DNA of 64,000 nucleotides from an uncultured Dehalococcoidia bacterium (lineage in GTDB: Bacteria > Chloroflexota > Dehalococcoidia > DSTF01 > RBG-16-68-14), in NCBI GenBank assembly GCA_964418365.1, contig CAYQLM010000001.1:24490-88489 (forward strand). Reading direction: 5' to 3'. Below, one piece after another: positions 9,931 through 25,860 of this stretch (positions are counted from its first letter, which is position 1; every line of letters begins with the position of its first letter). A model generated the notes under the pieces. That model was not told the origin of the DNA and did no database searches. It worked only from the letters and a program-made list of their open reading frames with translations. The position numbers and the translations under genes were made by a program.

Positions 9931-10231
9931 GAAGCCTCTCCTTGGCGCCCTTGTTGAAGACACAGTGAAGGCCAAAAGCCTGTTCCGAAGCCTGACCCGG
10001 CGTGGGAACGAATCCCCACTTGCGCCGGCGGTCATCACGGTCGGGGCCTTTGGCCGCGACTGAAGCTCTTCGATAGGCGCCGAAGGTGAAGTGTAACGGC
10101 CTCTCTATCGAGTGTCAAGCGAATCTGGCTTGCCTGTCGGGTGTTTCACTCAAGGCTGGCCGCGGACGCGCCGATAACTCTTGCGGGACACCCCTACGGA
10201 ACAACCCTCTTCCACAGGAGTAAGAACGCGC

Positions 10232-12224: not shown

Positions 12225-13586
12225 TTACGCGACCCTCTCTAGCTCTACGAAGTAGGAGGCGCAGGCGAGGTCGAGCCACTCCGCCGTGAGCGTGGGCTCT
12301 TTGCCGTAGAACTTCGTGATGTCGACAAGCAGCTCGACCAGGTCGCGCGGGTGGCATGCCTTCGGCTGCTGCGACTGGTTGCTCCGGTACATCTGCAGCA
12401 AGTACTGCGCGCCCTCGTCGCTGTAGGCAACGCCCTTCTGCGCACAGACGCGCCGCAGGATCTCCAAGTAGTCTTCCTCGGTCGGGTTCGGCACCTCAAC
12501 CTTGTGCCGGATGCGGCGGAAGAACGCCTCGTCGCCCAGCTTCCCGGGCGGGATGTTCGACGAAAAGACGAGCAGCACGTCGAACGGCAACTCTACCGTG
12601 TCGCCGGTGTGCACCGAGAGGTGGTCCGTACCCTGCTCCATCGGCACGATCCAGCGGTTCAGCAATTCCTGCGGCTGGATGGCCTGGCGGCCGAAGTCGT
12701 CGATGATCAGCACGCCGCTGTTCGCCTTCCACTGCAGCGGCGCGATGTAGAACTGCGAGATCGATGAATAGCGCAGCTCCAGGTCCTGCAACGTCAGCTC
12801 GCCGCCCACGCTCACCAACGGGCGCTTGGTCAGCGCCCAGCGCGCGTCTCGCCGGCGCTCCCGGCCGGCGATCGTCTGCGCCAGGCGGCGGCGCTCTTCC
12901 AGGATCAGCGGGTCGATGCGCTTGTGCAGCCTCGGGTCGAAGACCTTCACGATCTGCCCGTGCACGACGACCGCGTACGGTACCACGACTTCGCCGGGCA
13001 GCATGTCACCGATCGCCGTGGTGATCGAGCTCTTGCCATTGCCAGCGCCGCCGTAGATCAGTAGCGATCGCGCGGAGTTCAGCGCCGGACCCAGTCGCGC
13101 GAGCACCGTCTTGTTCAGTACCAGGTGCGACAGGCCGTTCATGTAGGTCTCGGTGTCGATCTCGATGCTGGTGACCGACTGGCGGCGCAGCACCTCGACG
13201 TACAGCTCGAAGGGCACCGGCGTCGGGCCGACGTAATGGCTGCGCGCGAGCGCTTCTTCCGCTTTCTTGCGTCCGCGGTCGGTCAGCGAGTACTGGTACG
13301 CCTGCTCGCCGACGCCCGCGCTGCCGACGACTTCGAGCACCTGCTCGCGGCGCAGGAACGTGATCAGCTCGGTCATGACGGGGAACGAAAGGCACAGCTG
13401 GTCAGAAAGCACCCGGCCGGAAGGCCGGCCGTAGAAGTAGATCGTCTTCAGTGTGAGATCGACCAGCATCGAGAGCTCGAGGCCGGTCTCTTCGACCGAG
13501 CTCGGCTGCGAGACGAACGGCGCTTCGCCGTCTGCGGATTGGTCGTGGTCTACCGTTACGGAGAGCGTTGGGGACTCTGCAATCAT
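12225..13586 (-). CDS. P-loop NTPase of the AAA+ superfamily with an N-terminal winged-helix-like domain
   Basis: Walker A LLIYGGAGNGKSSI; Walker B VLIIDDFGRQ followed by SSNIPP. This resembles the IstB/DnaC/TniB-style motifs, but the protein is 453 aa and no transposase is nearby. Confidence 0.6.
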   Translation of the reverse strand: MIAESPTLSVTVDHDQSADGEAPFVSQPSSVEETGLELSMLVDLTLKTIYFYGRPSGRVLSDQLCLSFPVMTELITFLRREQVLEVVGSAGVGEQAYQYSLTDRGRKKAEEALARSHYVGPTPVPFELYVEVLRRQSVTSIEIDTETYMNGLSHLVLNKTVLARLGPALNSARSLLIYGGAGNGKSSITTAIGDMLPGEVVVPYAVVVHGQIVKVFDPRLHKRIDPLILEERRRLAQTIAGRERRRDARWALTKRPLVSVGGELTLQDLELRYSSISQFYIAPLQWKANSGVLIIDDFGRQAIQPQELLNRWIVPMEQGTDHLSVHTGDTVELPFDVLLVFSSNIPPGKLGDEAFFRRIRHKVEVPNPTEEDYLEILRRVCAQKGVAYSDEGAQYLLQMYRSNQSQQPKACHPRDLVELLVDITKFYGKEPTLTAEWLDLACASYFVELERVA

Positions 13587-13639
13587 CGTTTTATACCCCC
13601 TAGGATTATCGCGTGGCTGCCGCCGTCCTGAAGAGCAGG

Positions 13640-14065
13640 TCAGCTGGCCAAAACCAACTCCTGCGTCAGATCGCCCCAGCTGAAGAAGACGGCGGAGAGG
13701 CGAACGCCCGCCTGCTCGAAGACGCCGTCCGCAGCCCAGCGCGCCAGCATCGCTCGTGTTTCAGCTTCGACCTCTCCCGTATAGAAGCCGGTAGGCCTCA
13801 GGACCGAGAAGTTCGCGCTCGCGAGCGGTGCCTGGCCTTCGCCCGCGGCCGCGATCGCCAGCGAGACGCTATCGACGCCGTACGGACGGTGCATCGCGCC
13901 GAGCTGCTCGCGGCACCAGGCGATCAGCTCCCCCGCGATGGCGTCGCTCGCGCCGAGCGTTACCGGCCAGCTCGTGTGGTACAGGCCGACGCCCGAATCG
14001 AGCGCCTGGCGCACGGCCCGGCGTAACGAACGGCGTTGCAAGAGTCGTGAGATGGCGTTCGCCAT
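13640..14065 (-). CDS. Hypothetical 141-aa protein, probably co-transcribed with the downstream AAA+ ATPase
   Basis: ORF in the same orientation, 53-nt gap to the ATPase start; no recognisable motifs. Confidence 0.45.
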   Translation of the reverse strand: MANAISRLLQRRSLRRAVRQALDSGVGLYHTSWPVTLGASDAIAGELIAWCREQLGAMHRPYGVDSVSLAIAAAGEGQAPLASANFSVLRPTGFYTGEVEAETRAMLARWAADGVFEQAGVRLSAVFFSWGDLTQELVLAS

Positions 14066-14129
14066 CGAATCTCCCCCGGCGTCAGGAAATCGCCTAGGGG
14101 AGTATCGGCAGCAGATCGAGGGGTCTCGA

Positions 14130-14456
14130 TTAGGGAGCGGGCGTCCGGCGCGGCGAAAGTGCGCCCTGGATCATCAGCGCGCCCGCGATCACGAGCGCGA
14201 TCCCTGCGAACTTCGACCACGCGATGCCCGCCACCGCGCTGCCCGAGCCGGATGCCGGCAGCGTGATCGACTGACGCGGCGGGTGGACGGACACAGGGCC
14301 CAGCTCGGAAACGTACGTCGCGGTCGGTAACGGCGCGGCCGCGACCGATGACGTCTCGCTGAGTGCATGCGAGCTTCCGCCGGCCGCGAGCGAAGCGCCG
14401 ACCGTCACTCCGATGACGGCGAGGAACGTGATAGCGGCGATTGTGGCGAGGCGCAT
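14130..14456 (-). CDS. Small secreted protein with a signal peptide and a C-terminal LPXTG-like sortase sorting signal
   Basis: Internal ATG at 14456 gives MRLATIAAITFLAVIGVTVGASLAAG (signal peptide). The C-terminus has LPASG, a hydrophobic stretch and an RRTPAP tail. The ORF upstream extension to 14753 is probably not translated. Confidence 0.5.
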   Translation of the reverse strand: MRLATIAAITFLAVIGVTVGASLAAGGSSHALSETSSVAAAPLPTATYVSELGPVSVHPPRQSITLPASGSGSAVAGIAWSKFAGIALVIAGALMIQGALSPRRTPAP

Positions 14457-14990
14457 AGCTCCGTAGATAACAAGACCGCCGTCTTCAGCAAGACGGCGGC
14501 TGAAGATCCTCCGAGCGTATCCTCTTCGGTAGCCCGGCTGTCGCTCCTGGAAGTGGAGTCGATCCTGGGGCTTTGCGTGGCCCTTCGCGTGACGGGCCGT
14601 GCCCTTTCGGAGGCTTCTATTCGATTGTTGGGTGGGGCCAGGGGACGCCTGCCAGGCCCCGCCTCCTGAACGCGCGTCCCCTGGGCCCGTAGCCCGATCG
14701 CACCCGCCTAAGGCGGGAGGATCGCTCCAGGAATGGCGAACCATCCCGGCCAAGTGGCTCGCGCTGCGCGCCGGCCCCGGCCTCCTGCTGCCCGGCGGCG
14801 GTCATCGCCTTCAGGGCTTCCCGCCCTGAACTGGACGGTCTACCCGTCCGATAACTCTCTAGGGTGTCTGATCCGACGGCCACCCTTCGCGGACCGGCCG
14901 CGGCGTCGGGTCGGGCCGCATTGTGTCACAGGGTTGGCGATATGTCAAGCGCATCAGCACCCAACGCCTAAAACGGGAGCGCTTTCGGCG

Positions 14991-17072
14991 ATGTTACAGA
15001 CTTCGACGATCCGTCATCGGACCTCCTGGCTACGCGCTGTTCTCGTCGCGCTCTTTGTGCTGGCGTTCACGATTGCCGGCTCACGCGATCTGCTCGCGCA
15101 GCAGCCGACGCCGCTGACCGTCAAGATCAACGGCTTTGCCGGCGGCGACTTGTCGCACGCGCAGGTAGTTGTCACGGTGCTGGACAACGCGGGGCATCCC
15201 CTCTCCGGCCTGACGAAGGACAGCTTTCACGCGCGGCTGAACGACGCTGACGCGATCACGATTGGGCTGAGCCAGGGCGTCGACAGCAGCGTGCCGCTTA
15301 CCGTCGTGCTGGCGATCGACGTCAGCGCCGGTATGGCAGGCCCGGCTATGGAACAGGCGAAGACCGCGGCTGGCGGTTTCGTCGATGGACTGGGGCCGCA
15401 AGATAGCGTCGCTGTGTTCGCGTTCAACGACACGGCGAATCTCGTCCAGCCGTTCACGCAGGATCACGCCGCTGCGCACAACGCCATCGACTTCTTAGGC
15501 GCGACTGGTGGCTCGCAGCTGTACCAGGCGACGCTGCAGAGCATCCTGCAGGCGTCCGCCAGCGCCGACACCGGCCGTCGCGCTGTCGTGCTGCTCAGCG
15601 GCTCCACAGACACGAGCGCGGCGACACCGGACCAGGCGCTGTTCGCTGCGCAGGCGCTCGGCGTACCGATCTTCGACATCGCGGTCGGCACGAGTGTCGA
15701 TAACGAGTATCTACGCAAGCTTGCCGACGTGAGCGGCGGCCAGTTCACGCAGGCATCCGGGCCGGAGGCGCTCGTACCGCTGTACCAGAACCTGGGCGAG
15801 CTGCTGCGCGATCAGTATGTGCTGACGCTCGACGCCTCGGCCGTGCAGCTGGGCAAGTCGCAGCCGGCGACGCTATCGATCACGGCGACCGCGGGCGACA
15901 GCAGCGGCAGCGACCAGCGTGTCGTGTGCCCGCAGCGCCTCTGCGTCACGCTCGACAACATCGCGGCCGGCGACAAGGTGGACGCCGCGCGCATCGTGAC
16001 CGCGAGTGTCGTCGCCACCGATCCGGTGACGTCGGTCACCTTCCTGGTCGATGGCCAGGTGGCGTCCACCGCCACGGCATCGCCGTACCAGTTCACGTTC
16101 GATCCGAAGCAGTACGGCAACGGAAAGCATCTCTTGGCTGCTGAAGTGGCATCGGGAAGCGCCACGGCGCGGACGGATGACGTGCAGATACAGTTGGGAG
16201 CGGCAAAGTCCGGCAGCAAGCTGATCGCCATGGGCGCCCTCGGTGCGCTCGGGCTGGTCGCGGTATTGCTCGTCTTGTTTGTCGTACTCCGTCGTCGTGG
16301 CCGGGGCGAGCGTCCTAAGCCTGTCGCGCCGTCCGACACGCCTAAAGTCGGCCCCATTTTGAAGGGCCGCGGACGGCTGCGCATACTCGAACCCGACGAG
16401 GCGCCGGCGGCGCCCGCCGCTGCAGCGCCCGCTGCGCTGGTGGGGCAGCTCCATGTCACGAGTGGCCCAATGGCGGGCCAGTCCTTCGCGATTGGTAGCA
16501 CGCCTGTCAGCATCGGGTCTGGCCATCGTTGCACGATCCGCCTCCCACGCGATCTCGATGAAGGCGGCGAAATCGCTCCCGAGTTCGCCCGCATCTGGGT
16601 GCGTAACGACCAGCTCATGGTGCACGAGCTGCGCCGGCTGACCGTCGCCGGTCCTGTGGGAGGCCGCTGGGAGATGCTGGAGAACGGTGACACCTTCTCC
16701 ATCGGATCGTGCGCCTTCCGCTTCGAGCTCGGCACGGGCGACGACAAGACAGAGGAAACGAAGCCCGCGGAGCCGCCGCCCGACATCCTCCGCAGCAGGG
16801 AAGGCAGCGATGCCTGGCCGGCCGCGTCTGCGACCTTCGCGGCACCGGCGCTACAGGCACCGGCGCAGCGCGCGCAAGAGCTTGCCGTAGAACCGCCGCC
16901 GGACATCTTCCGCAAGAGAGAACAGTCCGCTGCCGCGGCCTCATCCTCGGACACTCCGCCCTTGCCGACGCCGTTGCCCAGCGCTCAGAAGCAGGAGCTC
17001 GAGAACGGCCAGGGGAGGCAGGCGGAGGATTCGGGCCCCGATAGCCCCCCTCAGGCCGCCGCCGCCCCTTAG
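14991..17072 (+). CDS. Single-pass membrane protein: signal peptide, extracellular VWA domain, Ig-like region, TM, cytoplasmic FHA domain, Pro-rich tail
   Basis: VWA MIDAS motif (VVLAIDVSAGM) and TM (LIAMGALGALGLVAVLLVLFVVL). FHA-like region (GQLHVTSGP...SIGSGHRCTIRL...RIWVRNDQLMVHEL...NGDTFSIGSCAFRFE). Tail carries two EPPPDI(L/F)RxRE motifs. Start ATG 14991; the ORF extends up to 14733. Confidence 0.75.
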   Translation: MLQTSTIRHRTSWLRAVLVALFVLAFTIAGSRDLLAQQPTPLTVKINGFAGGDLSHAQVVVTVLDNAGHPLSGLTKDSFHARLNDADAITIGLSQGVDSSVPLTVVLAIDVSAGMAGPAMEQAKTAAGGFVDGLGPQDSVAVFAFNDTANLVQPFTQDHAAAHNAIDFLGATGGSQLYQATLQSILQASASADTGRRAVVLLSGSTDTSAATPDQALFAAQALGVPIFDIAVGTSVDNEYLRKLADVSGGQFTQASGPEALVPLYQNLGELLRDQYVLTLDASAVQLGKSQPATLSITATAGDSSGSDQRVVCPQRLCVTLDNIAAGDKVDAARIVTASVVATDPVTSVTFLVDGQVASTATASPYQFTFDPKQYGNGKHLLAAEVASGSATARTDDVQIQLGAAKSGSKLIAMGALGALGLVAVLLVLFVVLRRRGRGERPKPVAPSDTPKVGPILKGRGRLRILEPDEAPAAPAAAAPAALVGQLHVTSGPMAGQSFAIGSTPVSIGSGHRCTIRLPRDLDEGGEIAPEFARIWVRNDQLMVHELRRLTVAGPVGGRWEMLENGDTFSIGSCAFRFELGTGDDKTEETKPAEPPPDILRSREGSDAWPAASATFAAPALQAPAQRAQELAVEPPPDIFRKREQSAAAASSSDTPPLPTPLPSAQKQELENGQGRQAEDSGPDSPPQAAAAP

Positions 17073-17175
17073 GCCCCCACGTTCCGTCGCAAGCCAAGCC
17101 CTCTAGCGCCCAGGCGCTCCTGCCGAACCTTACCTGGGGACGATTTCGACTCACCCAATTGCGAACGACAAGCTT

Positions 17176-17775
17176 ATGGCACTTGCCACACCGAACATCG
17201 AAGAAGCCAGCCTCGTGCGCCGCGCCATTATGCGCGACCGCGAGGCGTTCGGCGAGCTGTACGACCGGCACGTCGTGCGCGTCTACCGGCACATCTACTA
17301 CCTCGTCGGCAACGCGGCCGAGGCGGAAGACCTCACGGCGCAGGCGTTCCTGCAAGCCTGGGAGGCGATCGACCGCTATCAGATGCGTGGTGCGCCCTTC
17401 GTTTCGTGGCTGCTGCGCATCGCGCACAACCTGGCCGTGAGCCACCTGCGGTCACGCAAGGACCGCTCGGAGCTGCCGGACACGCTGGTGGACCACAGCC
17501 GCCTGGGCAATCCGGAGGAAATGGTCCAGCAGACCGCGGAAGGTGAGCGCGTTCGCGCTGCGATTCTGCGCCTGCGCGAAGAGCAGCGTCAGGTGATCAT
17601 GCTGCGCTTTGTCGAGGACCTCGAGTACCCGGAAGTGGCGGAGATCGTCGGGAAGAGCGTCGCGGCCGTACGCGTCATCCAGCACCGCGCGCTCAACGCG
17701 CTGCGAAAGCAGATCGGAAACGAGCCCACGCCGGTGCGCCACCGCAGAGCGACTCGTTTCTCAGCCTCCGGTTAG
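17176..17775 (+). CDS. ECF-type RNA polymerase sigma factor (sigma-70 regions 2 and 4)
   Basis: 199 aa; region 2 (YRHIYYLVGNAAEAEDLTAQAFLQAW) and region 4 (EQRQVIMLRFVEDLEYPEVAEIVGKSVAAVRVIQHRAL). Confidence 0.88.
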   Translation: MALATPNIEEASLVRRAIMRDREAFGELYDRHVVRVYRHIYYLVGNAAEAEDLTAQAFLQAWEAIDRYQMRGAPFVSWLLRIAHNLAVSHLRSRKDRSELPDTLVDHSRLGNPEEMVQQTAEGERVRAAILRLREEQRQVIMLRFVEDLEYPEVAEIVGKSVAAVRVIQHRALNALRKQIGNEPTPVRHRRATRFSASG

Positions 17776-17776
17776 T

Positions 17777-19030
17777 CTACGCGGCGTACGCCTGCTGCGG
17801 CGCCTTCTCCGTTTCGCTCGACGTCGCGATGCTCTCCTGCGCTGGCCAACGGAACGACACGCAGAGATAGCCCGCGAGCACGAAGAAGCCCGTCAGCGAT
17901 AGCCCCTGGATCGCGATCACGGGCAGGACGAACAGCAGCGTAAACGATAGGAGCAGCGCGTTCGTCGCGCGCCGCGTCGCTTCGACGCTCGAGTTCGCCG
18001 TAAGGTACGCGCGCAGCGCAAGCGTCGCGGGTAACAGCATGAGCACCAGGCTCTGCGTGTGTACGTGTGGCGAAGCGATCAGCGGCAGCAGCACCGCGAT
18101 GCTGTAGTCGCGTTCGAGCGAGCCGCTGGCCCGCCAGCGCGCCACCGCGACCGCGATCGCGCCCGCCGCGATGATCGCGGAGCCCGGCGCCCAGTAGACT
18201 AGCCTGTCGCTGTTCGTCGCGCTGACGATGAAGCCCCGCCAGTTGGCCATGAACTGCGCATTCACCGTCAGCCGTCCGCCTGAGCCGTACGTGGCCAACT
18301 CCTTCACGTTGTCGAACAGCGTCGATGGGGCGGTCAGCAAGGCCGGGACGATCAGGAGCGCTAGGCCGGCACACGCCAGCGTTCCCAGCGTCCGCCAATC
18401 ACGTCGCAGTAGTAACAGGAGTACGACGCCGATCAAGAAGTGCGGCTTTATGAGCACGAGGCACAGGGTCAGGCCGGCGAGCACGCGTCGATCTGCGCGC
18501 AGGAGCAGGTAGCCGCCCAGCAGGCCAGCCAGCGCGACAAGATCGACCTGGCCGAAAACGATCGTCGCGAGCGAGGGCATGGCGAAGGCGGCGCAGGCGA
18601 GAAACAGCCAGCGCACACGCCCGGGAAGGTCTTTGAGCTCCTCGCCGAGCAGCCGGAGCAGGCCGCCTAGCAGGCAGGCCATCAGTGACATGTAGAGGGA
18701 GAACGCGGCCGTGAAAGGCAACCGCGATAGCGGCGCGAAGAGCCAGGCGGCGAAGACGGGCAGGGGGTAGCCGATCGCCTCGTCGAAGCCGCCCGGGTAC
18801 AGGTGGCGCTGGGTCGCTTCGATGGCCGCGGGATCGTAGAGGTGGGCGCCATGGCCCGTTCGAACGAGGAATCCCGCGGCGTAGAACGACAGGAAATCGC
18901 CGGTGGCGCCGTAGGCGTTCGTCGCGATGTGCTGGAGGACCGTCCCGAAGATGGCGATACTGCCGGCGGCGGCGATCGCGGCCGCCGCGGAGAGCGCCAC
19001 CGTCAGGGCCGAGAACTCTCGGAGCTTCAC
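17777..19030 (-). CDS. Polytopic membrane glycosyltransferase-like protein (DUF2029/GT87-like)
   Basis: 417 aa, about 10 TM segments, motif TNAYGATGDFLSFYAAG typical of DUF2029 mannosyltransferase-like proteins. Confidence 0.55.
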   Translation of the reverse strand: MKLREFSALTVALSAAAAIAAAGSIAIFGTVLQHIATNAYGATGDFLSFYAAGFLVRTGHGAHLYDPAAIEATQRHLYPGGFDEAIGYPLPVFAAWLFAPLSRLPFTAAFSLYMSLMACLLGGLLRLLGEELKDLPGRVRWLFLACAAFAMPSLATIVFGQVDLVALAGLLGGYLLLRADRRVLAGLTLCLVLIKPHFLIGVVLLLLLRRDWRTLGTLACAGLALLIVPALLTAPSTLFDNVKELATYGSGGRLTVNAQFMANWRGFIVSATNSDRLVYWAPGSAIIAAGAIAVAVARWRASGSLERDYSIAVLLPLIASPHVHTQSLVLMLLPATLALRAYLTANSSVEATRRATNALLLSFTLLFVLPVIAIQGLSLTGFFVLAGYLCVSFRWPAQESIATSSETEKAPQQAYAA

Positions 19031-19247
19031 CTCCCTAGCATCGACTCACCTTCATCTTACGGGCAGTCTGCGAAGCCCCTATCGGCCGGAGTTCGAGTCT
19101 GGAGCCGCATGTCTTTCGACCCCTTCAGATGGGCTAGGGGTTTACCGATGATGTCATCAGGGAACACACGTAAGGGAATGCCCGGCGAACATGGCGCTCC
19201 TAGAGCGGCCCGCGTCGGAGTCTGGAGAAGGGAAAGGAGGACAACGA

Positions 19248-19463
19248 ATGCAACTGCTCAACGAAGCGCTGCTGCGTATCCTCACCGGTTGGCACGGGCT
19301 TCAGGCTCGGGCGCAGGATGAGGAAGGGCAGACCCTGGCGGAGTACGGCCTGATTATGGCCGTCATCGCCGTGGCGGTCGTGGTTCTTGCGGTGACCGTG
19401 TTCCGCAACGCGATCGTGGGTGCCTTCAACGGCGCCGTCGACTGTCTAGACGGAAGCTGCTAA
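19248..19463 (+). CDS. flp: Flp-family type IVb prepilin, copy 1
   Basis: Leader MQLLNEALLRILTGWHGLQARAQDEEG, then QTLAEYGLIMAVIAVAVVVLAV (Flp G/xxxxEY motif). ATG 19248 with a GGAAAGGAGG Shine-Dalgarno. The ORF N-terminal extension from 19191 is unlikely. Confidence 0.85.
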   Translation: MQLLNEALLRILTGWHGLQARAQDEEGQTLAEYGLIMAVIAVAVVVLAVTVFRNAIVGAFNGAVDCLDGSC

Positions 19464-19746: not shown

Positions 19747-19962
19747 ATGCAACTGCTGAATGAAGCCCTGCTCCGCATCCTCACTGGGTGGCACGGGCTC
19801 CAGGCTCGGGCCGAGGACGAGGATGGGCAGACGCTGGCAGAGTACGGCCTCATTATGGCCGTCATCGCCGTGGCGGTTGTCGTCCTGGCCGTGACCGTGT
19901 TCCGCAACGCGATCGTAGGGGCCTTCAACGGCGCCGTCGACTGTCTAGACGGAAGCTGCTAA
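19747..19962 (+). CDS. flp: Flp-family type IVb prepilin, copy 2 (tandem paralog)
   Basis: 71 aa, identical mature region. Two conservative leader differences (Q to E, E to D). GGAGGGAGGG Shine-Dalgarno. Confidence 0.85.
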   Translation: MQLLNEALLRILTGWHGLQARAEDEDGQTLAEYGLIMAVIAVAVVVLAVTVFRNAIVGAFNGAVDCLDGSC

Positions 19963-20020: not shown

Positions 20021-20170
20021 GGCGGCAACGCCAGGAGACTCGTCCTCGGCTGGGGCGGGCCTTATAAAGCCCGACTCGAATCCGACCGATACATCTCATA
20101 GGCCTGCATAAGGCCGAAGGCTCTATCTCATTCGATAGGCCGAGTATTCCACTGGTAGCGAGGGAAGCGC

Positions 20171-21010
20171 ATGGCTCAGACAATCACGACCGCTGCAGTT
20201 AGTCGAGTAAACCGCCGGTTTCTGCTCCTGGCCATCGTACTGGCCATCTTGAGTGCGGTGCTGGTCTACGCCCAGCTCTCTCACTCGGGCTCCAATAGCA
20301 GCAGCAGCTCGGGCGGCGGCGATGTGTCCGTTGTCGTGGCGAAGGCCGCGGTTCCGGCCGGGACACGGATCACGGCAGACATGGTCGAAATTCGCTCGTT
20401 CGGCCAGAATGACGTGGGCTTTCAGGCCCTGACCGCAAGCGAGCAGGCTGTCGGACAGGTCGCGCGCTATCCGATCGCCGCGGGCGAGCAAGTGCTGTCG
20501 TCGAAGCTCGTCGACACAACGGTCTCGTCCAGCAGCAACCTCGCCTTCGTCCTCCAAAACGGCATGCGCGGCGTCGCGATGCACGTCGACCCCGTGACGG
20601 CCGCCGGCGGGCTCGTGTTGCCGGGCGATCACGTGGATGTGCTGTGGATCCCGTTCAAGGCCGCGCCCGTATACATCATGCTCTCGGACGTCGAAGTGAC
20701 CGCGGTAAGCCAAACCGTTGTCGATGTGGCGCCCGCGGCTCCTGGTCTGCAAAAGGACCCGAACGCACCGCAGACGGGCAATCGTACGCGCATCTCGGAA
20801 GGCAACCCTGACCCGGCGGCGGACACTGTGACGTTCATGGTGTCGCCGGAACAAGCAATGTCGCTGATCTGCGGCACGAGCATTGCGCAGGCGTATGGCG
20901 GGACCATCAGCCTGTCAGTGCGGAGCTTCGGCGACACGGCCCCGCTGGCGGTCAATGCGCCGCCTTGTCCGCCGACGGAGCTGATGCGACAGCTGGGGAT
21001 CATTCAGTAG
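20171..21010 (+). CDS. cpaB: Flp pilus assembly protein CpaB/RcpC (SAF domain)
   Basis: 279 aa, N-terminal TM (FLLLAIVLAILSAVLVYA), SAF-like VAKAAVPAGTRITADMVEIRSF. Confidence 0.8.
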   Translation: MAQTITTAAVSRVNRRFLLLAIVLAILSAVLVYAQLSHSGSNSSSSSGGGDVSVVVAKAAVPAGTRITADMVEIRSFGQNDVGFQALTASEQAVGQVARYPIAAGEQVLSSKLVDTTVSSSSNLAFVLQNGMRGVAMHVDPVTAAGGLVLPGDHVDVLWIPFKAAPVYIMLSDVEVTAVSQTVVDVAPAAPGLQKDPNAPQTGNRTRISEGNPDPAADTVTFMVSPEQAMSLICGTSIAQAYGGTISLSVRSFGDTAPLAVNAPPCPPTELMRQLGIIQ

Positions 21011-21049
21011 CGCGTAGCAACACGCGAAGACGCGGAGAGGCAGGAGACC

Positions 21050-22243
21050 GTGCCACGCGACCCTGAAATCATCATTGTCGACCCCGACCTCGATACTCGG
21101 GCCGACCTGAAGCATATGCTCGGGCTCGCGAAGCTGGCGGTCGTGGGCGAGGCGGACTACGGCATCGAGGCTGCCACCGTCTCCCAGGAGCACCCGCCGG
21201 ACGTCTTCCTCATCAGCATGGAGGAGCCGGCCGCCCGCGCGATCCAGACAGTGGAGATGCTCGGCTCGGTGGCGCCGCGCGCGGCGATCATTGTCTACTC
21301 CTCGTTGACGGATGCGGCGTCGGTCCGCCGCGCGATGGTGGCCGGGGCGCGTGACTATTTGATCAAGCCTCTCCGTCCCGAAGACGTCAGCCGCGCCGTT
21401 TACGGCATCCTCGAGCAGGAGGAGCGCCGCCGGCTTCAAACGGAAGGCGACCACAGCGAGGCGGTCGCGCACGGCACCGTGGTTACCATCTTCGGTGCGA
21501 AGGGTGGCATTGGAAAGACCACCATCGCGACCAACCTCTCGGCCGCGCTCGTGAACACGACGCAGTCGAACGTGGCGCTGGTCGACATGGACACACGCTT
21601 CGGCGACGTCGCCATCATGATGGACATCGCCGTGGAACATAGTATCGCCGACCTGGGCCGGCGAATCGACTCTCTGGACCGCGAGTCGATCAAGGACAGC
21701 CTCGCGCGGCACCACACCGGCGTTTCGATCCTGCCGGCGCCGCTGCACCCGACGGAGTGGCGTGACCTGACGCCGCAGCACATCGAGCGGATCGTCGACT
21801 TGCTGGCCCAGGGCTATGACTGGGTCGTCATCGACACGCCCGGGACGTTCAACGAGATCATCGCCGCGACGCTGGAGATCGGCGACATCATCCTGCTGGT
21901 CACCAGCATGGACATCGCCAGCATCAAGGACACGGCTCTGGCGCTAGAGATGCTGCGAGCAGCCGATGTATCAGAAGACAAAGTGAAGCTGGTCATCAAC
22001 CACTCCACATCGGCGAACAGCCTGCGTGAGGAGGATGTGGAGCGGGTGCTGGAGTACAAAGTGACCTGGCGCATTCCGCACGATTACAACGTGGCAAGCG
22101 CGAACCAGCTCGGCATTCCTATCGTAACGGCGAAGCCGTACGCTCGTGTGTCGCGCGCCATTGTGGATATGGCCTATGACCTTACGGGCGTTTCCAGAGA
22201 GCGAAAGGGCTTCCTGGAGCGGTTCCTGGGCCGGGCCTCGTAA
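21050..22243 (+). CDS. tadZ: Flp pilus assembly protein TadZ/CpaE (receiver-like N-domain plus ParA/MinD-like ATPase)
   Basis: 397 aa, GTG start, deviant Walker A (IFGAKGGIGKTTIATNLS), MinD fold. Confidence 0.85.
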   Translation: MPRDPEIIIVDPDLDTRADLKHMLGLAKLAVVGEADYGIEAATVSQEHPPDVFLISMEEPAARAIQTVEMLGSVAPRAAIIVYSSLTDAASVRRAMVAGARDYLIKPLRPEDVSRAVYGILEQEERRRLQTEGDHSEAVAHGTVVTIFGAKGGIGKTTIATNLSAALVNTTQSNVALVDMDTRFGDVAIMMDIAVEHSIADLGRRIDSLDRESIKDSLARHHTGVSILPAPLHPTEWRDLTPQHIERIVDLLAQGYDWVVIDTPGTFNEIIAATLEIGDIILLVTSMDIASIKDTALALEMLRAADVSEDKVKLVINHSTSANSLREEDVERVLEYKVTWRIPHDYNVASANQLGIPIVTAKPYARVSRAIVDMAYDLTGVSRERKGFLERFLGRAS

Positions 22244-22273
22244 CACAACTCAGGGAAAGAAGGTTAGCGAGAG

Positions 22274-23623
22274 ATGAGTCAATTCTCGTGGCACCCACGA
22301 AGCGGAAGCGGAACTGAAACTCCGGAGCGGCCGTTCCAGCGGCGCAGCCAGAGCGTCGAGGCCGTCAATGAGCTGAAGTTCACGCTGCACCAGCGCCTCA
22401 TCGAGGAGCTGGACCCGACCAAGCTCCAGGGGCTGGAGCCGGATCGCGCGCGCGACGCTGTCGTCGCCGCCGCGCGATCGCTCATCGCTCAGGAGATGCC
22501 GGGCATCGTCGGCGCCGTGCGCGACGAGCTCGTGCAGTCGGTCGCGGACGAAGTGCTGGGCCTCGGCCCGATCGAACCGTTGATCAGGGACGTAGCCGTC
22601 TCAGAAGTGATGGTCAACGCCCCCGATCAGGTCTTCTATGAGAAGGAAGGCCGGCTCTATCTGAGCTCCGTTCGCTTCCGCGATCAGGCGCACATCATGC
22701 GCATCGTCGAGCGCATCGTGGCGCCCCTTGGCCGTCGTGTGGATGAATCGTCGCCTATGGTGGACGCTCGTTTGCCCGATGGCTCCCGCGTGAACGTCAT
22801 CATCCCGCCTGTCGCGCCGAAGAGCCCGACGATCACCATCCGGAAGTTCCAGGCCGACAAGATGACGATCGAGGACCTGATCGGCATCGGCAGCTTGACG
22901 CGCGAGCTGGCGGAGTTCTTCCGGGCCTGCGTACAGGTGCGGCTGAACATCATTGTCTCCGGCGGTACCGGCACCGGCAAGACGACCATGCTGAACGCAC
23001 TCTCGTCCTTCATTCCAGACACCGAGCGCATCGTCACCATTGAGGACCCGACGGAGCTCAGGCTCCAGCAGGGCCACGTCGTGAGCCTTGAGGCGCGGCC
23101 ACCCAGCCTGGAGGGCAAGGGTGAGGTGACGCAGCGAGACCTAGTCCGCAATTCGCTACGTATGCGCCCCGACCGCATCATCGTCGGTGAGGTGCGCGGC
23201 GCGGAATCCTTCGACATGATGCAGGCGATGAACACCGGCCACGAAGGATCGCTCGGCACGGTGCACGCCAACACGCCCCGAGACGCCCTCGCCCGTATCG
23301 AGAACATGGTCCTGATGGCCGGGCTCGATCTGCCGATGCGCGCGATCCGCGAGCAGATCTCTTCCGCGATCCACATCGTCACCCAGCTCACCAGGATGGC
23401 CGACGGGACGAGAAAGGTCACGCACGTATCCGAGATCGCCGGCATGGAGGGCGACATCGTGACGATGCAGGACCTGTTTCGGTACGAACAGCGTGGTGTG
23501 GACAGCGACGGCCGTGTCATCGGTGAGTTCCGCGCGACGGGAATCCGCCCGCGCTTCGCAGAGAAGTTCGAAGTAGCCGGCATCCGGCTGCCGCCGGACA
23601 TGTTCATGCCGGGAAGGCTGTAA
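22274..23623 (+). CDS. tadA: Tad secretion ATPase TadA/CpaF (VirB11-like)
   Basis: 449 aa, Walker A (VSGGTGTGKTTMLNAL), Walker B/Asp box; His box region HTGHEGSLGTVHAN. Confidence 0.92.
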   Translation: MSQFSWHPRSGSGTETPERPFQRRSQSVEAVNELKFTLHQRLIEELDPTKLQGLEPDRARDAVVAAARSLIAQEMPGIVGAVRDELVQSVADEVLGLGPIEPLIRDVAVSEVMVNAPDQVFYEKEGRLYLSSVRFRDQAHIMRIVERIVAPLGRRVDESSPMVDARLPDGSRVNVIIPPVAPKSPTITIRKFQADKMTIEDLIGIGSLTRELAEFFRACVQVRLNIIVSGGTGTGKTTMLNALSSFIPDTERIVTIEDPTELRLQQGHVVSLEARPPSLEGKGEVTQRDLVRNSLRMRPDRIIVGEVRGAESFDMMQAMNTGHEGSLGTVHANTPRDALARIENMVLMAGLDLPMRAIREQISSAIHIVTQLTRMADGTRKVTHVSEIAGMEGDIVTMQDLFRYEQRGVDSDGRVIGEFRATGIRPRFAEKFEVAGIRLPPDMFMPGRL

Positions 23624-23626
23624 GCC

Positions 23627-24595
23627 ATGGACCCAATCGCGCTCTTAACCGCCGCTTCGGTCCTCGTGGCCGTCCTCTCGTTCGGCCTGGCGTTTGCTAC
23701 CACGCCGGTGAGCGCGCAGATGCGCGCTCGCCTCCACGGCGTGCTCGCCGCTCAGACCGGCATCGCTGACCGCGGCGCCTCGGACGCGCCGCTGCGGGCG
23801 CGCCGCGGGCTTGGCGTGTTCCAAACGCTCATCTCTGGTGGCTGGCTGGCGCGGATGGAGACAGACCTTCGCCTGGCGGACAGTCGGCTCCACCCGGGCG
23901 ATTACCTCGCGCTGCGGGTCGGGGTGGCAGGACTGGGCTTTGTCGCGCCGTTTCTCGCCCTCGGCGGGGGGATGGGCCTCATTCTCGGAATCATCGCCGG
24001 CGCGGCCGGGTTCCAGGTGCCACAGTTCTGGATCGGCAACCGAAAGGCCAGCCGCGCCAGGAAGCTGGAGGCCCAGCTCCCGGAAGCGCTCACGATGGTG
24101 GCGAACTCGCTCAAGGCCGGCTTTGGCTTGCTGCAGGCGCTCAGCCTTGCCGCAGAGCAACTCGAACATCCGGTCAGCACGGAGCTCGCGCAGGCCGTGC
24201 AGGAGACGAACATCGGCTCCAGCGTGGAGGAAGCATTCCGTCAGCTCAGCGAACGGAATGGCAACTACGATCTCGACATGGTGGTGACCGCGATCATGGT
24301 GCAGCGGACGGCTGGCGGTAACCTGTCCGAGATCCTGGAGACGGTCACCGCAACCATGCGCGAACGCGTGCGCATCAAGGGCGAGATCCAGACGCTTACC
24401 GCGCAGCAGAAGCTGACGGGAATCGTCATCGCGCTGCTGCCGGTAGGGGTGGCTGGCTTGTTCGTTGTGATCAGCCCGGAATACATCAAGCCTTTGTTCA
24501 CGGACCCGCTGGGCCGGGTCATGCTGGGCGTGAGTACCTTCCTTGAAGTCATCGGCGTGCTCGTGATCCAGAAGATCCTGTCAATCGAGGTGTAG
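23627..24595 (+). CDS. tadB: Tad inner-membrane platform protein TadB (T2SS F domain)
   Basis: 322 aa, GspF-like domain, TM segments. Confidence 0.82.
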   Translation: MDPIALLTAASVLVAVLSFGLAFATTPVSAQMRARLHGVLAAQTGIADRGASDAPLRARRGLGVFQTLISGGWLARMETDLRLADSRLHPGDYLALRVGVAGLGFVAPFLALGGGMGLILGIIAGAAGFQVPQFWIGNRKASRARKLEAQLPEALTMVANSLKAGFGLLQALSLAAEQLEHPVSTELAQAVQETNIGSSVEEAFRQLSERNGNYDLDMVVTAIMVQRTAGGNLSEILETVTATMRERVRIKGEIQTLTAQQKLTGIVIALLPVGVAGLFVVISPEYIKPLFTDPLGRVMLGVSTFLEVIGVLVIQKILSIEV

Positions 24596-24600
24596 GCGTC

Positions 24601-25506
24601 ATGCCAATGCTTGCCGCGCTAGTCTTCGCTTCCGCTGTCTTCGTATTCGTCCTGTCCTTTAGTGGCGGCGAAGCGCGCATTCGCTCTCGCCTCCAGGCGC
24701 TGCGCGGCCCCGACGTGCATGACCAGTCACGCGAGGCGCTCACGCTGAAGCAGCGCATGTTTCTGCCCATCACGGACGGCATCATGCAGTCTGTGTCGCG
24801 CTACCTGCCGTCCGGCGTCATGTCGCGCATGGAGGAGAAGCTGGTGATCGCTGGCGAGCCGATGTCGGCGAACACGTTCATGGCCGTCCGGCTGATCTGC
24901 TTCGCGTTGCTGGCGGGTCTGCCCGTGCTGCTGCTTACGGCCGGCATGATCAAGCTGAGCATGACGGGCATCGTCTTCATCGGGGCATTTACGGTAGCCG
25001 GGATCATGCTGCCCACCGTGTGGCTGTCGCAGCGCGTAGGGCAGCGTCAGAGCACGATCATCAAGAGCCTACCCGATGCCTTCGATCTCATCACGACATG
25101 CGTGGAGGCTGGCCTCGGACTGGACGCCGCGCTCGCCCGCGTCGCGGACAAGGTCGAGGGCCCGTTCGCCGATGAGCTATCGAGGGCGTTGCGCGAGATC
25201 GGTCTCGGCAGGATGCGCCGTGAAGCGCTACGCGAGCTCGGTTCGCGCACTGGCGTGCCCGACCTGATCACGTTTGTCAACGCCGTGATTCAGGCTGAAC
25301 TTATGGGCTCCAGTGTCGGTGCGGTGTTGCGCGTACAGGCGGAACAGCTTCGCATGCGCCGCCGCCAGCGCGCGGAGGAGCAGGCCTACAAGGCGCCGGT
25401 AAAGATGATCTTCCCCCTTGTGCTCTTCATCTTCCCGACGCTCTTCATCGTCATCTTGGGCCCGGCCATGATCACGATCATGAAGGACTTTCCTGGCGGG
25501 AAGTAG
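24601..25506 (+). CDS. tadC: Tad inner-membrane platform protein TadC (T2SS F domain)
   Basis: 301 aa, second GspF-like paralog directly after tadB. Confidence 0.82.
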   Translation: MPMLAALVFASAVFVFVLSFSGGEARIRSRLQALRGPDVHDQSREALTLKQRMFLPITDGIMQSVSRYLPSGVMSRMEEKLVIAGEPMSANTFMAVRLICFALLAGLPVLLLTAGMIKLSMTGIVFIGAFTVAGIMLPTVWLSQRVGQRQSTIIKSLPDAFDLITTCVEAGLGLDAALARVADKVEGPFADELSRALREIGLGRMRREALRELGSRTGVPDLITFVNAVIQAELMGSSVGAVLRVQAEQLRMRRRQRAEEQAYKAPVKMIFPLVLFIFPTLFIVILGPAMITIMKDFPGGK

Positions 25507-25515
25507 CCGGCTGGC

Positions 25516-25860
25516 GTGCGGATAACCAACCAGACGAAGGGGACGGAGCTGGCGAGCGCTGCTCGCGTCGCCCGCAGCCTCTCGTCTCGAACCATTGGCT
25601 TGCTTGGCAAGCGCGCGTTGCCTCAGGGTGAGGCGCTCGTCATCGATCCCTGTTCGTCGGTTCACACCGCCTTCATGCGCTTCACGATTGACGTCCTGTA
25701 CCTGGACCCGTCGAAGCGTGTCATCAAGGCCGTCGCGGATCTGAAGCCGTTCCGCATCAGCGGCGTCCTGCGCGGCAAGTGTTCGGTGATCGAGCTGCCG
25801 CGGGGCGCTATCGCCGCGAGCAACACTGCCCCCGGCGACCAGCTCGCCTTCGATTCCTAG
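25516..25860 (+). CDS. DUF192 (COG1430) domain protein
   Basis: 114 aa, GTG start; motif RTIGLLGKRAL...GEALVIDPCSSVHTAFMRFTIDVLYLD typical of DUF192. Confidence 0.65.
   Translation: MRITNQTKGTELASAARVARSLSSRTIGLLGKRALPQGEALVIDPCSSVHTAFMRFTIDVLYLDPSKRVIKAVADLKPFRISGVLRGKCSVIELPRGAIAASNTAPGDQLAFDS

Follow-up and report, generated by a model that had tools for sequence, protein, structure and literature searches.

A predicted Tad/Flp pilus cluster headed by genes for a VWA-FHA membrane protein and an ECF sigma factor in uncultured Dehalococcoidia-like Chloroflexota

The stretch of DNA analysed here (64 kb from an uncultured Dehalococcoidia bacterium, referred to as the window) carries a cluster of Tad/Flp pilus genes, preceded by a gene that combines VWA and FHA-fold domains and by a gene for an ECF-type sigma factor, with a divergent operon upstream. 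The features are listed by position. The Tad core genes, all assigned by Pfam, together occupy 20171..25506; the Flp pilins were assigned by sequence and by Flp_Fap matches in orthologous loci, and the 114-aa ORF by synteny and length only.

12225..14948 (-), divergent conserved operon encoding proteins of 108 aa (anchored), 141 aa and 453 aa (weak AAA_16)
14500-14475 (-), terminator hairpin of the divergent operon
14612-14524 (-), candidate c-di-GMP-I riboswitch
14620-14700, invariant element
14827..14855 (+), promoter-like TGAACT-N16-CGATAA upstream of the VWA-FHA gene, non-canonical
14948-14920 (-), sigma-70-type promoter of the divergent operon
14991..17072 (+), VWA-FHA gene: signal peptide, beta-sandwich, VWA, Ig (Big_7), transmembrane (TM) helix, FHA-fold domain, disordered tail
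15303..15752 (+), VWA domain, aa 105-254, extracytoplasmic
15948..16136 (+), Big_7 bacterial Ig-like domain, aa 320-382
16221..16295 (+), TM helix, aa 411-435, followed by a RRRGRGER stop-transfer sequence
16428..16736 (+), FHA-fold domain, cytoplasmic
16770..16802 (+), tail motif copy 1, EPPPDILRSRE
16890..16922 (+), tail motif copy 2, EPPPDIFRKRE
17101..17131 (+), conserved promoter-like CTCTAG-N17-CCGAAC in the VWA-sigma gap
17176..17775 (+), ECF-type sigma gene, 199 aa
17777..19030 (-), GT87 glycosyltransferase gene between sigma and flp
19123-19152, promoter-like CTTCAG-N17-CCGATGAT of Flp pilin gene 1
19248..19463 (+), Flp pilin gene 1
19747..19962 (+), Flp pilin gene 2
20065..20092 (+), promoter-like TAAAGC-N16-CGATAC upstream of cpaB
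20171-21010 (+), CpaB/RcpC
21050-22243 (+), REC-ParA TadZ/CpaE
22274-23623 (+), CpaF/TadA ATPase
23627-24595 (+), TadB
24601-25506 (+), TadC
25516..25860 (+), 114-aa ORF where related loci have the DUF192 gene

The genes expected of a Tad/Flp locus (Flp, CpaB/RcpC, TadZ/CpaE, CpaF/TadA, TadB and TadC) were found clustered in the window. In related loci the cluster is closed by a DUF192 gene (called in L001, L002, L004, L006, L007, L009 and L010). Every related locus with both flanks readable had the order VWA-FHA, sigma, flp, cpaB, tadZ, cpaF, tadB, tadC. The arrangement VWA-FHA-sigma-(flp)-tad was present in L001, L002, L004, L006, L007 and L009-L013 and in many metagenome loci, all of the compared loci being metagenome-derived, and it held down to ~37% identity of the VWA-FHA protein. 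This synteny supports the functional link to the neighbouring pilus genes that was proposed in the preliminary description. As judged from the conserved gene order, the VWA-FHA and sigma genes are the first genes of the Tad (Flp) cluster in uncultured Dehalococcoidia-like Chloroflexota. Neither a secretin nor a TadD gene was seen in the Tad cluster, which fits a monoderm type of system.

The same pilus genes, in the usual order, make up the known Tad/Flp loci (Aggregatibacter tad, Caulobacter cpa), and TadZ/CpaE is here, as in those loci, a ParA-like protein with an N-terminal receiver. The window cluster differs in being headed by a VWA-Ig-TM-FHA protein and an ECF sigma factor, which are not described there, and our literature search found no paper on such a pair heading a Tad locus. 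The GT87 gene (Pfam GT87, E = 1.4e-25) is convergent with the sigma gene and abuts its stop codon. At the sigma-flp position it was found only in the window, L001, L007 and L008 and was absent from L002, L006, L009, L010 and L012; judged by this distribution, it is a lineage-specific insertion.

The product of the first gene is a type I membrane protein whose signal peptide is of the cleavable type and whose TM anchor is C-terminal. Because the VWA domain is placed between the signal peptide and the TM helix, it lies outside, and the FHA-fold domain lies inside. The architecture first read from the DNA, an extracellular VWA domain, a TM helix and a cytoplasmic FHA domain, was thereby upheld: Pfam recognized the VWA domain (E = 5.7e-13; 49.9 bits versus a gathering cut-off of 23.8), Foldseek matched it to VWA structures, ArnB/vWA2 among them, and the TM helix and the FHA fold were both recovered. 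In the alignment the MIDAS metal site of the window VWA was incomplete (DVSAG, GGS and LLSGS versus DxSxS, Thr and Asp). This erosion is a trait of the window's clade, and the more distant family members P0014-P0025 retain DxSxS, T and D. A conserved Cys pair (C313/C318) stands just ahead of the Big_7 domain. The VWA-FHA family comprised 254 representatives at E<=1e-10, and a genome-contig profile search with a narrower alignment returned a single locus, a Dehalococcoidia MAG. Beyond the family, the nearest VWA sequences were VWA+T2SSF (TadB) fusions, and the ectodomain profile also matched the TadG-like VWA pseudopilin gene of L011.

The cytoplasmic domain has the eleven-stranded beta-sandwich of the FHA fold. 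PF00498 was not reported for it in the Pfam scan, and the matches to Yop-YscD_cpl (17.6 bits versus a cut-off of 33.2) and to the NCBIfam models FhaB (22.6 versus 125) and TagH (19.1 versus 120) were below threshold. The window sequence has GS for GR and APEF for SRRH. Among 173 aligned members, the position of the GR arginine was S (122), T (28) or A (14) and never R, the SxxH serine position was mostly A, G or P, and the canonical Arg and Ser occurred together in none (0/173); the Asn loop is also replaced in the family. On this alignment the phosphothreonine-binding residues are lost across the VWA-FHA family and binding in the usual mode is not possible; the initial assignment of a phosphothreonine-binding FHA domain was not supported.

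The sigma factor contains Sigma70_r2 and r4 only (Pfam). It scored 100.7 bits against the ECF superfamily model TIGR02937 (cut-off 42.9), placing it among the ECF (group 4) sigma factors, and did not reach the cut-off of the nearest named NCBIfam family, BldN (TIGR02952; 142.9 bits versus 206.45). Whole-protein identity was 66-89% to the sigma factors of loci whose VWA-FHA protein is 37-59% identical. It is best read as the locus-dedicated ECF sigma factor of the Tad locus. No cognate anti-sigma gene adjoins it in the window, and a profile search did not find in the window the small protein described below. The observation that this sigma gene has no anti-sigma gene downstream thus stood, with the convergent GT87 gene abutting its stop; the lack proved not to be intrinsic, since relatives carry a translationally coupled small protein resembling an anti-sigma domain (ASD).

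In many related loci a gene for a soluble protein of ~85 aa directly follows the sigma gene, often overlapping it (it follows directly or overlaps the sigma stop in L011 and L013). This small-protein family (17 clusters) shows homology to the N-terminal part of TM+DUF5667 proteins, 270-390 aa long, encoded downstream of more distant sigma relatives, and an N-terminal domain followed by a TM helix and DUF5667 is a classic anti-sigma architecture. The NCBIfam 'putative anti-sigmaE' model gave weak, sub-threshold matches in 9/16 members; the small protein matched no Pfam family (including in a scan of the L004 ORF), and no known anti-sigma factor in a PDB sequence search. Its gene position, the architecture of the distant relatives and the sub-threshold NCBIfam matches suggest that the small protein acts as the cognate anti-sigma factor. 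Comparison among the loci shows its loss in the window's sub-lineage to be secondary.

The cytoplasmic part of the VWA-FHA protein, aa 436-693, consists of the FHA-fold domain and the disordered tail, not of the helical domain of class I anti-sigma factors. It did not resemble the relatives' anti-sigma-like profile (hhalign probability 0.1%), nor did the tail resemble the anti-sigma domain (hhalign). Tad-linked loci were scored for both candidate partners of the sigma factor. VWA-FHA was present in 26 and missing in two, L038 and L066; since both of these have the sigma and small-protein genes, the sigma-Tad module can exist without VWA-FHA. The small protein was missing from 15 of the scored Tad-linked loci, all of which retained VWA-FHA. 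The rule that the sigma gene never occurs with both partners missing was discarded: 0 Tad-linked loci lacked both, with ~1 expected by chance, which is not significant and not evidence.

The duplication EPPPDI(L/F)R(S/K)RE reported earlier for the tail was confirmed. In orthologs it proved to be an instance of a family-wide short linear motif with the consensus P-[ND]-[IV]-[LF]-[RK] in 1-5 copies, and the VWA-FHA tails of other clades bear different motifs. The idea that the motif replaces the lost small protein had fitted the first three sister loci and was rejected as a simple rule when L017 was found to have three PNVLR motifs alongside the small ~85-aa protein.

Housekeeping promoters here follow the canonical form, with TTGACA-N17-TACACT at rpsL and TTGACA-17-CACAAT in front of the riboswitch operon. 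The Tad locus has promoter-like elements of another kind, which are conserved across loci and comprise at least two -35 types. The pattern T[GA]AA[CG]-N16-17-CGATA occurred twice in the window versus 0.29 times expected, upstream of the VWA-FHA gene and of cpaB, and was kept at both orthologous positions in 8 loci. In the VWA-sigma gap, where no terminator was predicted, the CTCTAG-N17-CCGAAC element resembles the flp promoter-like element CCCTTCAG-N16-CCGATGAT. On these conserved motifs, the pilus locus would be the putative regulon of the sigma factor.

Several further candidates were rejected. As a general -10 element, CGATA was uninformative (180 matches to a loose pattern). A match to the flp-type pattern upstream of rpsL lies in the leader of that gene, the real promoter being the canonical one. 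A conserved block just upstream of the VWA start, considered as a second plus-strand promoter or a palindromic operator, is better explained as the minus-strand canonical sigma-70 promoter of the riboswitch operon.

Structural matches of the VWA-FHA protein included ArnA/ArnB. In Sulfolobus acidocaldarius, ArnA (FHA) and ArnB (VWA) form the module that represses the archaellum; both proteins are cytoplasmic, and their binding to one another depends on phosphorylation (PMC6509490). The window protein is not such a module: it has both domains in one chain, they cannot meet because they are on opposite sides of the membrane, and its FHA domain is without the phosphothreonine-binding residues. SctD of the type III secretion system (YscD/PrgH) has an N-terminal cytoplasmic FHA domain, a TM helix and then periplasmic ring-building domains; order and orientation are reversed in the window protein, which shares only the FHA fold and does not belong to that family. 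In comparison with the FHA modules of T3SS SctD (YscD, PrgH, MxiG), T7SS EssC, the KilF ATPase of Myxococcus, where the FHA domain is N-terminal (PMC8460266), and class III CpaF, where it stands in cis on the Tad motor (PMC12019362), the window protein has the opposite topology (N-out, C-in), a VWA/Ig ectodomain in place of ring-building motifs, and an FHA domain that is not fused to the ATPase and has a sub-threshold Pfam score.

An extracellular VWA domain is likewise tied to a Tad/type IV pilus machine in the TadG pseudopilin, PilY1-type tip proteins and VWA-TadB fusions; the window protein differs from these in that no prepilin-like N-terminus or Tad (PF13400) domain was found in it and in the eroded MIDAS of its clade. 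As in ECF sigma/membrane anti-sigma pairs, FliA-FlgM and HrpL, a group-4 sigma gene lies within the genes for a surface machine and presumably governs them. Distant sigma relatives, too, are followed by a gene for a single-pass anti-sigma-like protein with an N-terminal domain, a TM helix and DUF5667. The partner in the Tad-linked clade retains only the soluble N-terminal domain, and in the window genome (64 kb covered) it is absent.

The reading we prefer, and consider probable with some reserve, is that a monoderm-type Tad/Flp (type IVc) cluster starts with genes for a locus-dedicated ECF sigma factor and for a transmembrane coupling protein that works independently of phosphorylation. Most likely the sigma factor would recognize non-canonical promoters with a common CCGAT(A) -10-like element and from there transcribe the pilus locus and probably also the operon that encodes it. 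Its ancestral partner would have been an anti-sigma factor, the N-terminal domain of which became the free ~85-aa soluble protein in the Tad-linked clade; the gene for this protein, directly after the sigma gene, would then have been lost in the window's sub-lineage. With its VWA/Ig ectodomain outside and, inside, a putative phosphorylation-independent FHA-fold scaffold and a tail with P-[ND]-[IV]-[LF]-[RK] docking motifs, the VWA-FHA protein most likely connects an event outside the cell (contact with a ligand, a surface or a pilus) to a partner in the cytoplasm that belongs to the Tad system. This partner could be the sigma/anti-sigma pair, the TadZ ParA-like ATPase or the CpaF motor.

It is possible, though we think it doubtful, that the VWA-FHA protein is instead a structural or assembly subunit of the Tad machine without any control of sigma, in a role like the FHA modules of SctD or EssC, or as an in-trans counterpart of the FHA domain that class III CpaF and KilF have in cis. 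After the anti-sigma loss, the sigma factor would then be regulated only via its own transcription. The match of the ectodomain profile to the L011 pseudopilin and the VWA-TadB fusions as next-nearest VWA sequences agree with this, as do the FHA-ATPase fusions known in Tad systems (PMC8460266, PMC12019362) and the co-occurrence of tail motif and small protein in L017. Yet the gene always adjoins the sigma gene and is never among the tad structural genes, L038 and L066 have a Tad locus without it, the membrane orientation is opposite to that of SctD, and ring-building motifs were not detected. The earlier suggestion that the VWA-FHA protein gates the sigma factor amounts, for lineages without the small protein, to an unconventional anti-sigma factor in which the FHA domain and/or the PN[IV]LR tail sequesters sigma at the membrane until an extracellular VWA signal frees it. 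We hold this to be unlikely. The two genes are co-oriented with a gap of ~100-130 nt in >35 loci, 15/15 scored loci without the small protein keep VWA-FHA, an ASD-only soluble anti-sigma factor without a sensor of its own leaves room for a separate membrane sensor, and ArnA(FHA)/ArnB(VWA) regulate the expression of another type IV filament (PMC6509490); but profile searches found no anti-sigma domain in VWA-FHA, L017 speaks against the motif as a simple replacement, the absence of loci lacking both partners is not significant, and tails of other clades carry different motifs.

A related proposal, to which we give little credence at present, is that the VWA-Ig-TM-FHA protein regulates the ECF sigma factor across the membrane in a novel manner, without an anti-sigma domain: its phosphorylation-independent FHA scaffold and PN[IV]LR docking motifs would hold or release sigma, or the soluble ASD-only anti-sigma factor of sister lineages, when the external VWA domain meets a ligand, a surface or a pilus; if true, a surface-sensing circuit would be built into the Tad pilus locus. 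Very improbable, and already disfavoured, is the response to Ser/Thr kinases put forward initially, with the FHA domain reading a Hanks-kinase phosphothreonine mark and relaying it to pilus regulation. The FHA fold is present, and in the distant relative P0035 the VWA-TM-FHA layout recurs with an FHA domain that is canonical by Pfam; this relative belongs to a T7SS-like locus and is surrounded there by kinases and a PP2C phosphatase. Against such a relay stand the altered Arg, Ser and Asn-loop positions given above. In addition, a regex search of the 64-kb window in six frames for Hanks-kinase catalytic loops and canonical FHA signatures returned nothing meaningful, no kinase or phosphatase domain was found among the window ORFs scanned against Pfam, and none was called in any Tad-linked locus read; kinases, or an anti-sigma factor, may be encoded elsewhere than in the 64 kb of the genome covered.

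Tad pili serve in adhesion and surface sensing, and to our knowledge the way in which Tad genes are switched on is known for few Proteobacteria only. On the preferred reading of a dedicated sigma factor with a coupling protein, a large branch of uncultured Chloroflexota would have a Tad locus with its own, unusually conserved ECF sigma factor. The three states of the putative anti-sigma factor (full membrane protein, soluble domain only, lost) would offer a natural series for ECF control once the anti-sigma factor is reduced or lost, and the FHA domain with its short motifs would make a concrete candidate for FHA signalling that needs no phosphorylation within a pilus machine.

The divergent operon may be controlled by a c-di-GMP riboswitch. 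The candidate element in the window scored 28.5 bits, with the GGC-variant model only, and gave no match at the Rfam gathering threshold (RF01051). Elements at the same position in L001, L004, L009 and L011 passed the riboswitch threshold (38.8-64.4 bits versus 35). The candidate riboswitch would tie this region to the usual second messenger of adhesion.

The related loci that were compared (L001 to L093) all lie on metagenomic contigs, and the window covers 64 kb of this genome; species-representative genomes gave one match, a Dehalococcoidia MAG. The features at the head of the Tad/Flp locus, a type IVc pilus cluster, are as follows.

12225-14456, minus strand: conserved divergent operon of three genes
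14991-17072, plus strand: gene of the VWA-FHA protein
16770-16802 and 16890-16922, plus strand: two copies of the tail motif
17176-17775, plus strand: ECF-type sigma gene
17777-19030, minus strand: GT87 glycosyltransferase gene, convergent to the sigma gene, stop at 17777
Beyond the GT87 gene, plus strand: two Flp pilin genes, CpaB/RcpC, receiver-ParA TadZ, CpaF, TadB, TadC and an ORF at the DUF192 position

Of the sigma-70 regions, the sigma factor has just 2 and 4. Its score exceeds the cut-off of the ECF superfamily model and falls short of that of the BldN family model. The order VWA-FHA, sigma, (flp), cpaB, tadZ, cpaF, tadB, tadC was constant in all related loci with readable flanks, down to 37% VWA-FHA protein identity, and upholds the link to the neighbouring pilus genes proposed in the preliminary description. 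Only the window and its closest relatives, L001, L007 and L008, have a GT87 gene separating sigma from flp. Because the other loci have flp or cpaB immediately after sigma and in its orientation, the convergent GT87 gene, which made the sigma gene look isolated, is a local insertion. In L001 the insertion comes with a GtrA-like gene, and L019 and L032 carry a plus-strand GT87 at another place in the cluster; this may hint at glycosylation of pilin or envelope tied to the pilus locus. Within the locus, conservation is much higher for cytoplasmic proteins (sigma 70-97% identity to the window protein in tblastn local alignments, TadZ 71-97%) than for exposed ones (VWA-FHA 37-90%, CpaB 42-95%).

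The VWA-FHA gene sits in an ORF spanning 14733-17072, and homologues start at the MLQ encoded from 14991, giving 693 aa. Profile searches placed a VWA domain (aa 105-254) and a Big_7 Ig-like domain (aa 320-382) above the Pfam thresholds. At the N-terminus, basic residues, a hydrophobic segment and a conserved AQQ were seen; RRRGRGER follows a second hydrophobic helix (aa 411-435), and a nearly invariant cysteine pair (C313/C318) lies between the two segments. The N-terminal stretch and the second helix with its basic flank predict that the VWA/Ig part is extracytoplasmic and the C-terminal 258 residues cytoplasmic. The observation of a VWA-containing membrane protein with a duplicated tail motif, followed by an ECF sigma gene with no visible anti-sigma, was confirmed. 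VWA-FHA homologues were first met in Chloroflexi MAGs, and exhaustive searching with an FHA-domain profile gave 254 cluster representatives at E<=1e-10, most of them 600-750 aa long with the FHA domain at about residue 480-590. The window's sub-clade has an eroded set of metal-binding MIDAS residues (DVSAG at 15318-15332, GGS at 15519-15527, LLSGS at 15594-15608), which more distant family members keep intact (DxSxS, Thr, Asp), so ligand binding by the ectodomain may have changed in this sub-clade.

The FHA assignment fared differently from that of the VWA domain. The only Pfam match to the region was Yop-YscD_cpl (E 0.0048), under its cut-off, as were the NCBIfam FhaB/TagH matches. When the domain was aligned by HMM to GarA, the GR arginine fell on Ser and the SRRH motif on A-P-E-F, and the Asn loop had no counterpart. 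Among 173 family members in the domain profile alignment, none had R at the Arg position, which held S (122), T (28) or A (14); A, G or P mostly stood at the Ser position, and Arg and Ser occurred together in none. The preliminary description had taken this domain to bind phosphothreonine and perhaps to answer to Ser/Thr kinases; with Arg absent from 173 of 173 members and Ser mostly replaced, it is predicted not to be a standard phosphothreonine reader. No Hanks-kinase catalytic motif was found within the 64-kb window, no kinase or phosphatase domain among the window ORFs scanned against Pfam, and the related Tad-linked loci that were read gave no such calls. A kinase relay through the FHA domain is therefore considered very improbable. 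A kinase-coupled version of the architecture does exist, in a different system, since the gene of P0035, a distant relative with the same VWA-TM-FHA layout and a canonical Pfam FHA, lies among genes for kinases, WXG100, a PP2C phosphatase and an FtsK/EssC-type ATPase. L005 (contig ERZ27297441:k141_4511833, 1-17176) is a T7SS-like locus with a distantly related VWA-TM-FHA protein whose FHA is canonical. Besides WXG100 and a PP2C phosphatase, it encodes an FtsK/SpoIIIE ATPase of 1347 aa, another FHA protein and four or more Ser/Thr kinases that carry fused FGE-sulfatase-like domains.

The tail is predicted to be disordered (pLDDT<50). Codons of its two motif copies differ at synonymous sites, and the motif has therefore been kept at the protein level rather than freshly duplicated. 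Conservation extends to orthologues: in the window's wider clade, P-[ND]-[IV]-[LF]-[RK] is present in 1-5 copies per tail, most commonly as PNILR and PNVLR, of which PDILR and PDIFR in the window are variants. Other clades have other motifs at the same place, namely ELMP(R/K), (R/H)ELWP(R/S), PQEHGMALR or an amphipathic AVxEALxxxF segment. A tail of this type is what short linear motifs that dock a putative cytoplasmic partner would look like.

The absence of a visible anti-sigma is correct for the window, where a profile search of the whole stretch found none of the small protein described here; what it appears to reflect is a secondary loss, as relatives carry that protein. In L004, the most divergent of the loci found first, a short ORF directly follows sigma. 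It belongs to a family of ~81-92 aa (17 clusters) with no Pfam domain, and its overlap with the stop codon of sigma in L011 and L013 points to translational coupling of the two genes. A metagenome scan with the sigma alignment gave 80 loci, 41 of which had a small-protein profile match directly downstream. In seven loci with distant sigma relatives at 38-49% identity (L061, L070, L072, L083, L086, L092 and L093), the small-protein domain forms the N-terminus of 270-390-aa proteins, followed by a TM segment and DUF5667 (Pfam E 1e-15 to 2e-11). A textbook anti-sigma has an N-terminal cytoplasmic domain, one TM segment and an outer domain, and its gene lies just after that of the ECF sigma. The N-terminal part of the NCBIfam 'putative anti-sigmaE protein' model gave weak, sub-threshold matches to 9 of 16 domain sequences, and a PDB sequence search returned no anti-sigma match for the small protein. 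From this layout and the weak NCBIfam matches, the small protein is probably an anti-sigma domain, separated in the Tad-linked clade from the rest of its ancestral protein. It is absent from the window-like loci L001, L002, L006-L010, L012, L016, L019, L021, L023, L026, L027 and L032.

Whether the VWA-FHA protein has taken over as anti-sigma was weighed against these distributions. A rule that a locus has either the small protein or a PN[IV]LR tail, never both, fitted the first three sister loci and was broken by L017 (three PNVLR motifs plus the small protein). The scorable Tad-linked loci comprised 15 with VWA-FHA only, 11 with both and 0 with neither; this zero proves nothing, because only ~1 was expected from the marginal frequencies. 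The small protein occurs without VWA-FHA in two of the scored loci, L038 and the L066 locus whose sigma is on the minus strand. The cytoplasmic region showed no similarity to the anti-sigma-like profile (hhalign probability 0.1%), which speaks against direct gating of sigma by the VWA-FHA protein; such gating is possible but unsupported, and we regard it as unlikely. A purely structural role for the protein is somewhat less doubtful, and both alternatives overlap in part with the reading that we favour with moderate confidence: an ECF sigma dedicated to a Tad pilus locus of Chloroflexota, whose cognate anti-sigma domain protein was lost in this lineage, with a phospho-independent transmembrane coupler from VWA to FHA encoded just upstream and a putative cytoplasmic partner.

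Candidate targets of the sigma were found upstream of Tad genes. Housekeeping promoters of this lineage look canonical (TTGACA-N17-TACACT upstream of rpsL, kept in five loci; TTGACA-17-CACAAT with TG, minus strand, 14948-14920). The conserved Tad-locus elements instead carry a -10-like box of the form CCGAT(A). The VWA-FHA gene is preceded by TGAACT-N16-CGATAA and cpaB by TAAAGC-N16-CGATAC; across the 64 kb their pattern matched nowhere else (0.29 matches expected), and eight loci retain it at both positions. CCCTTCAG-N16-CCGATGAT lies upstream of most flp copies, and CTCTAG-N17-CCGAAC in the gap between the VWA-FHA and sigma genes resembles it. ECF promoters usually have an AAC-type -35 and a CG-containing -10; the -35 boxes of the candidate elements are of at least two types. 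The locus sigma would read these elements and drive the pilus genes and its own operon.

The cluster qualifies as a Tad system by its core genes, but its two head genes are absent from described Tad loci, and no literature was found on DUF5667 or on Tad loci that contain an ECF sigma. Among type IV filament systems, Kil of Myxococcus includes several FHA proteins as well as an ATPase with a fused FHA (PMC8460266), and class III CpaF orthologues have an N-terminal FHA (PMC12019362). Archaellum expression in Sulfolobus is repressed by ArnA, an FHA protein, acting together with the VWA protein ArnB (PMC6509490), and both appear as structural neighbours of the window's two domains. The Arn pair is cytoplasmic and phosphorylation-dependent, whereas here the domains lie across the membrane from each other and the FHA is degenerate. 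SctD of the T3SS shares a degenerate FHA and a TM segment, but the window protein has the reverse orientation and different outer domains. The VWA-FHA/sigma/Tad arrangement is a member of none of the families compared.

The divergent operon accompanies the Tad locus in most relatives. The product of its first gene, 108 aa long, starts with a signal peptide and has a hydrophobic C-terminal anchor preceded by LPASGSGS, a possible sorting signal; the other two genes encode a 141-aa protein of no family and a well-conserved 453-aa protein (65-96% identity) with just a weak AAA_16 match. Its leader holds a candidate c-di-GMP-I riboswitch (14524-14612, minus strand; 28.5 bits, sub-threshold, GGC-variant model), preceded by the canonical promoter at 14948-14920; at the corresponding position, single elements in L001 and L009 and tandem pairs in L004 and L011 pass the RF01051 gathering score. 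A terminator-like hairpin (14500-14475, minus strand) lies just 5' of the first gene. Between promoter and riboswitch, an ~80-nt element (14620-14700, either strand) is almost invariant where proteins differ by 30-60%, with too little variation for covariation; it matches no Rfam family and can fold as a long hairpin, GGGGCCAGGGGACGCC...GGCGUCCCCUGGCCCC, next to a hairpin that varies. The long leader between the rpsL promoter and the S12 start codon (9931-10190, minus strand), kept in five loci, had no Rfam match at the gathering threshold and may be a structured ribosomal-protein leader.

The tandem flp genes (19248-19463 and 19747-19962, plus strand) encode products 97% identical; copy number in relatives ranges from one to three. 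A hairpin in the 5' leader, GCCCGGCG...CGTCGGAGC, is conserved ahead of the ribosome-binding site of each gene, and a terminator-like hairpin is associated with the gene after the first flp. Adjoining the Tad cluster, 25871-28066 (minus strand) encodes a large surface-type protein with a Thr/Pro-rich repeat linker and DUF11 and CARDB domains, and a similar gene flanks the cluster in L007.
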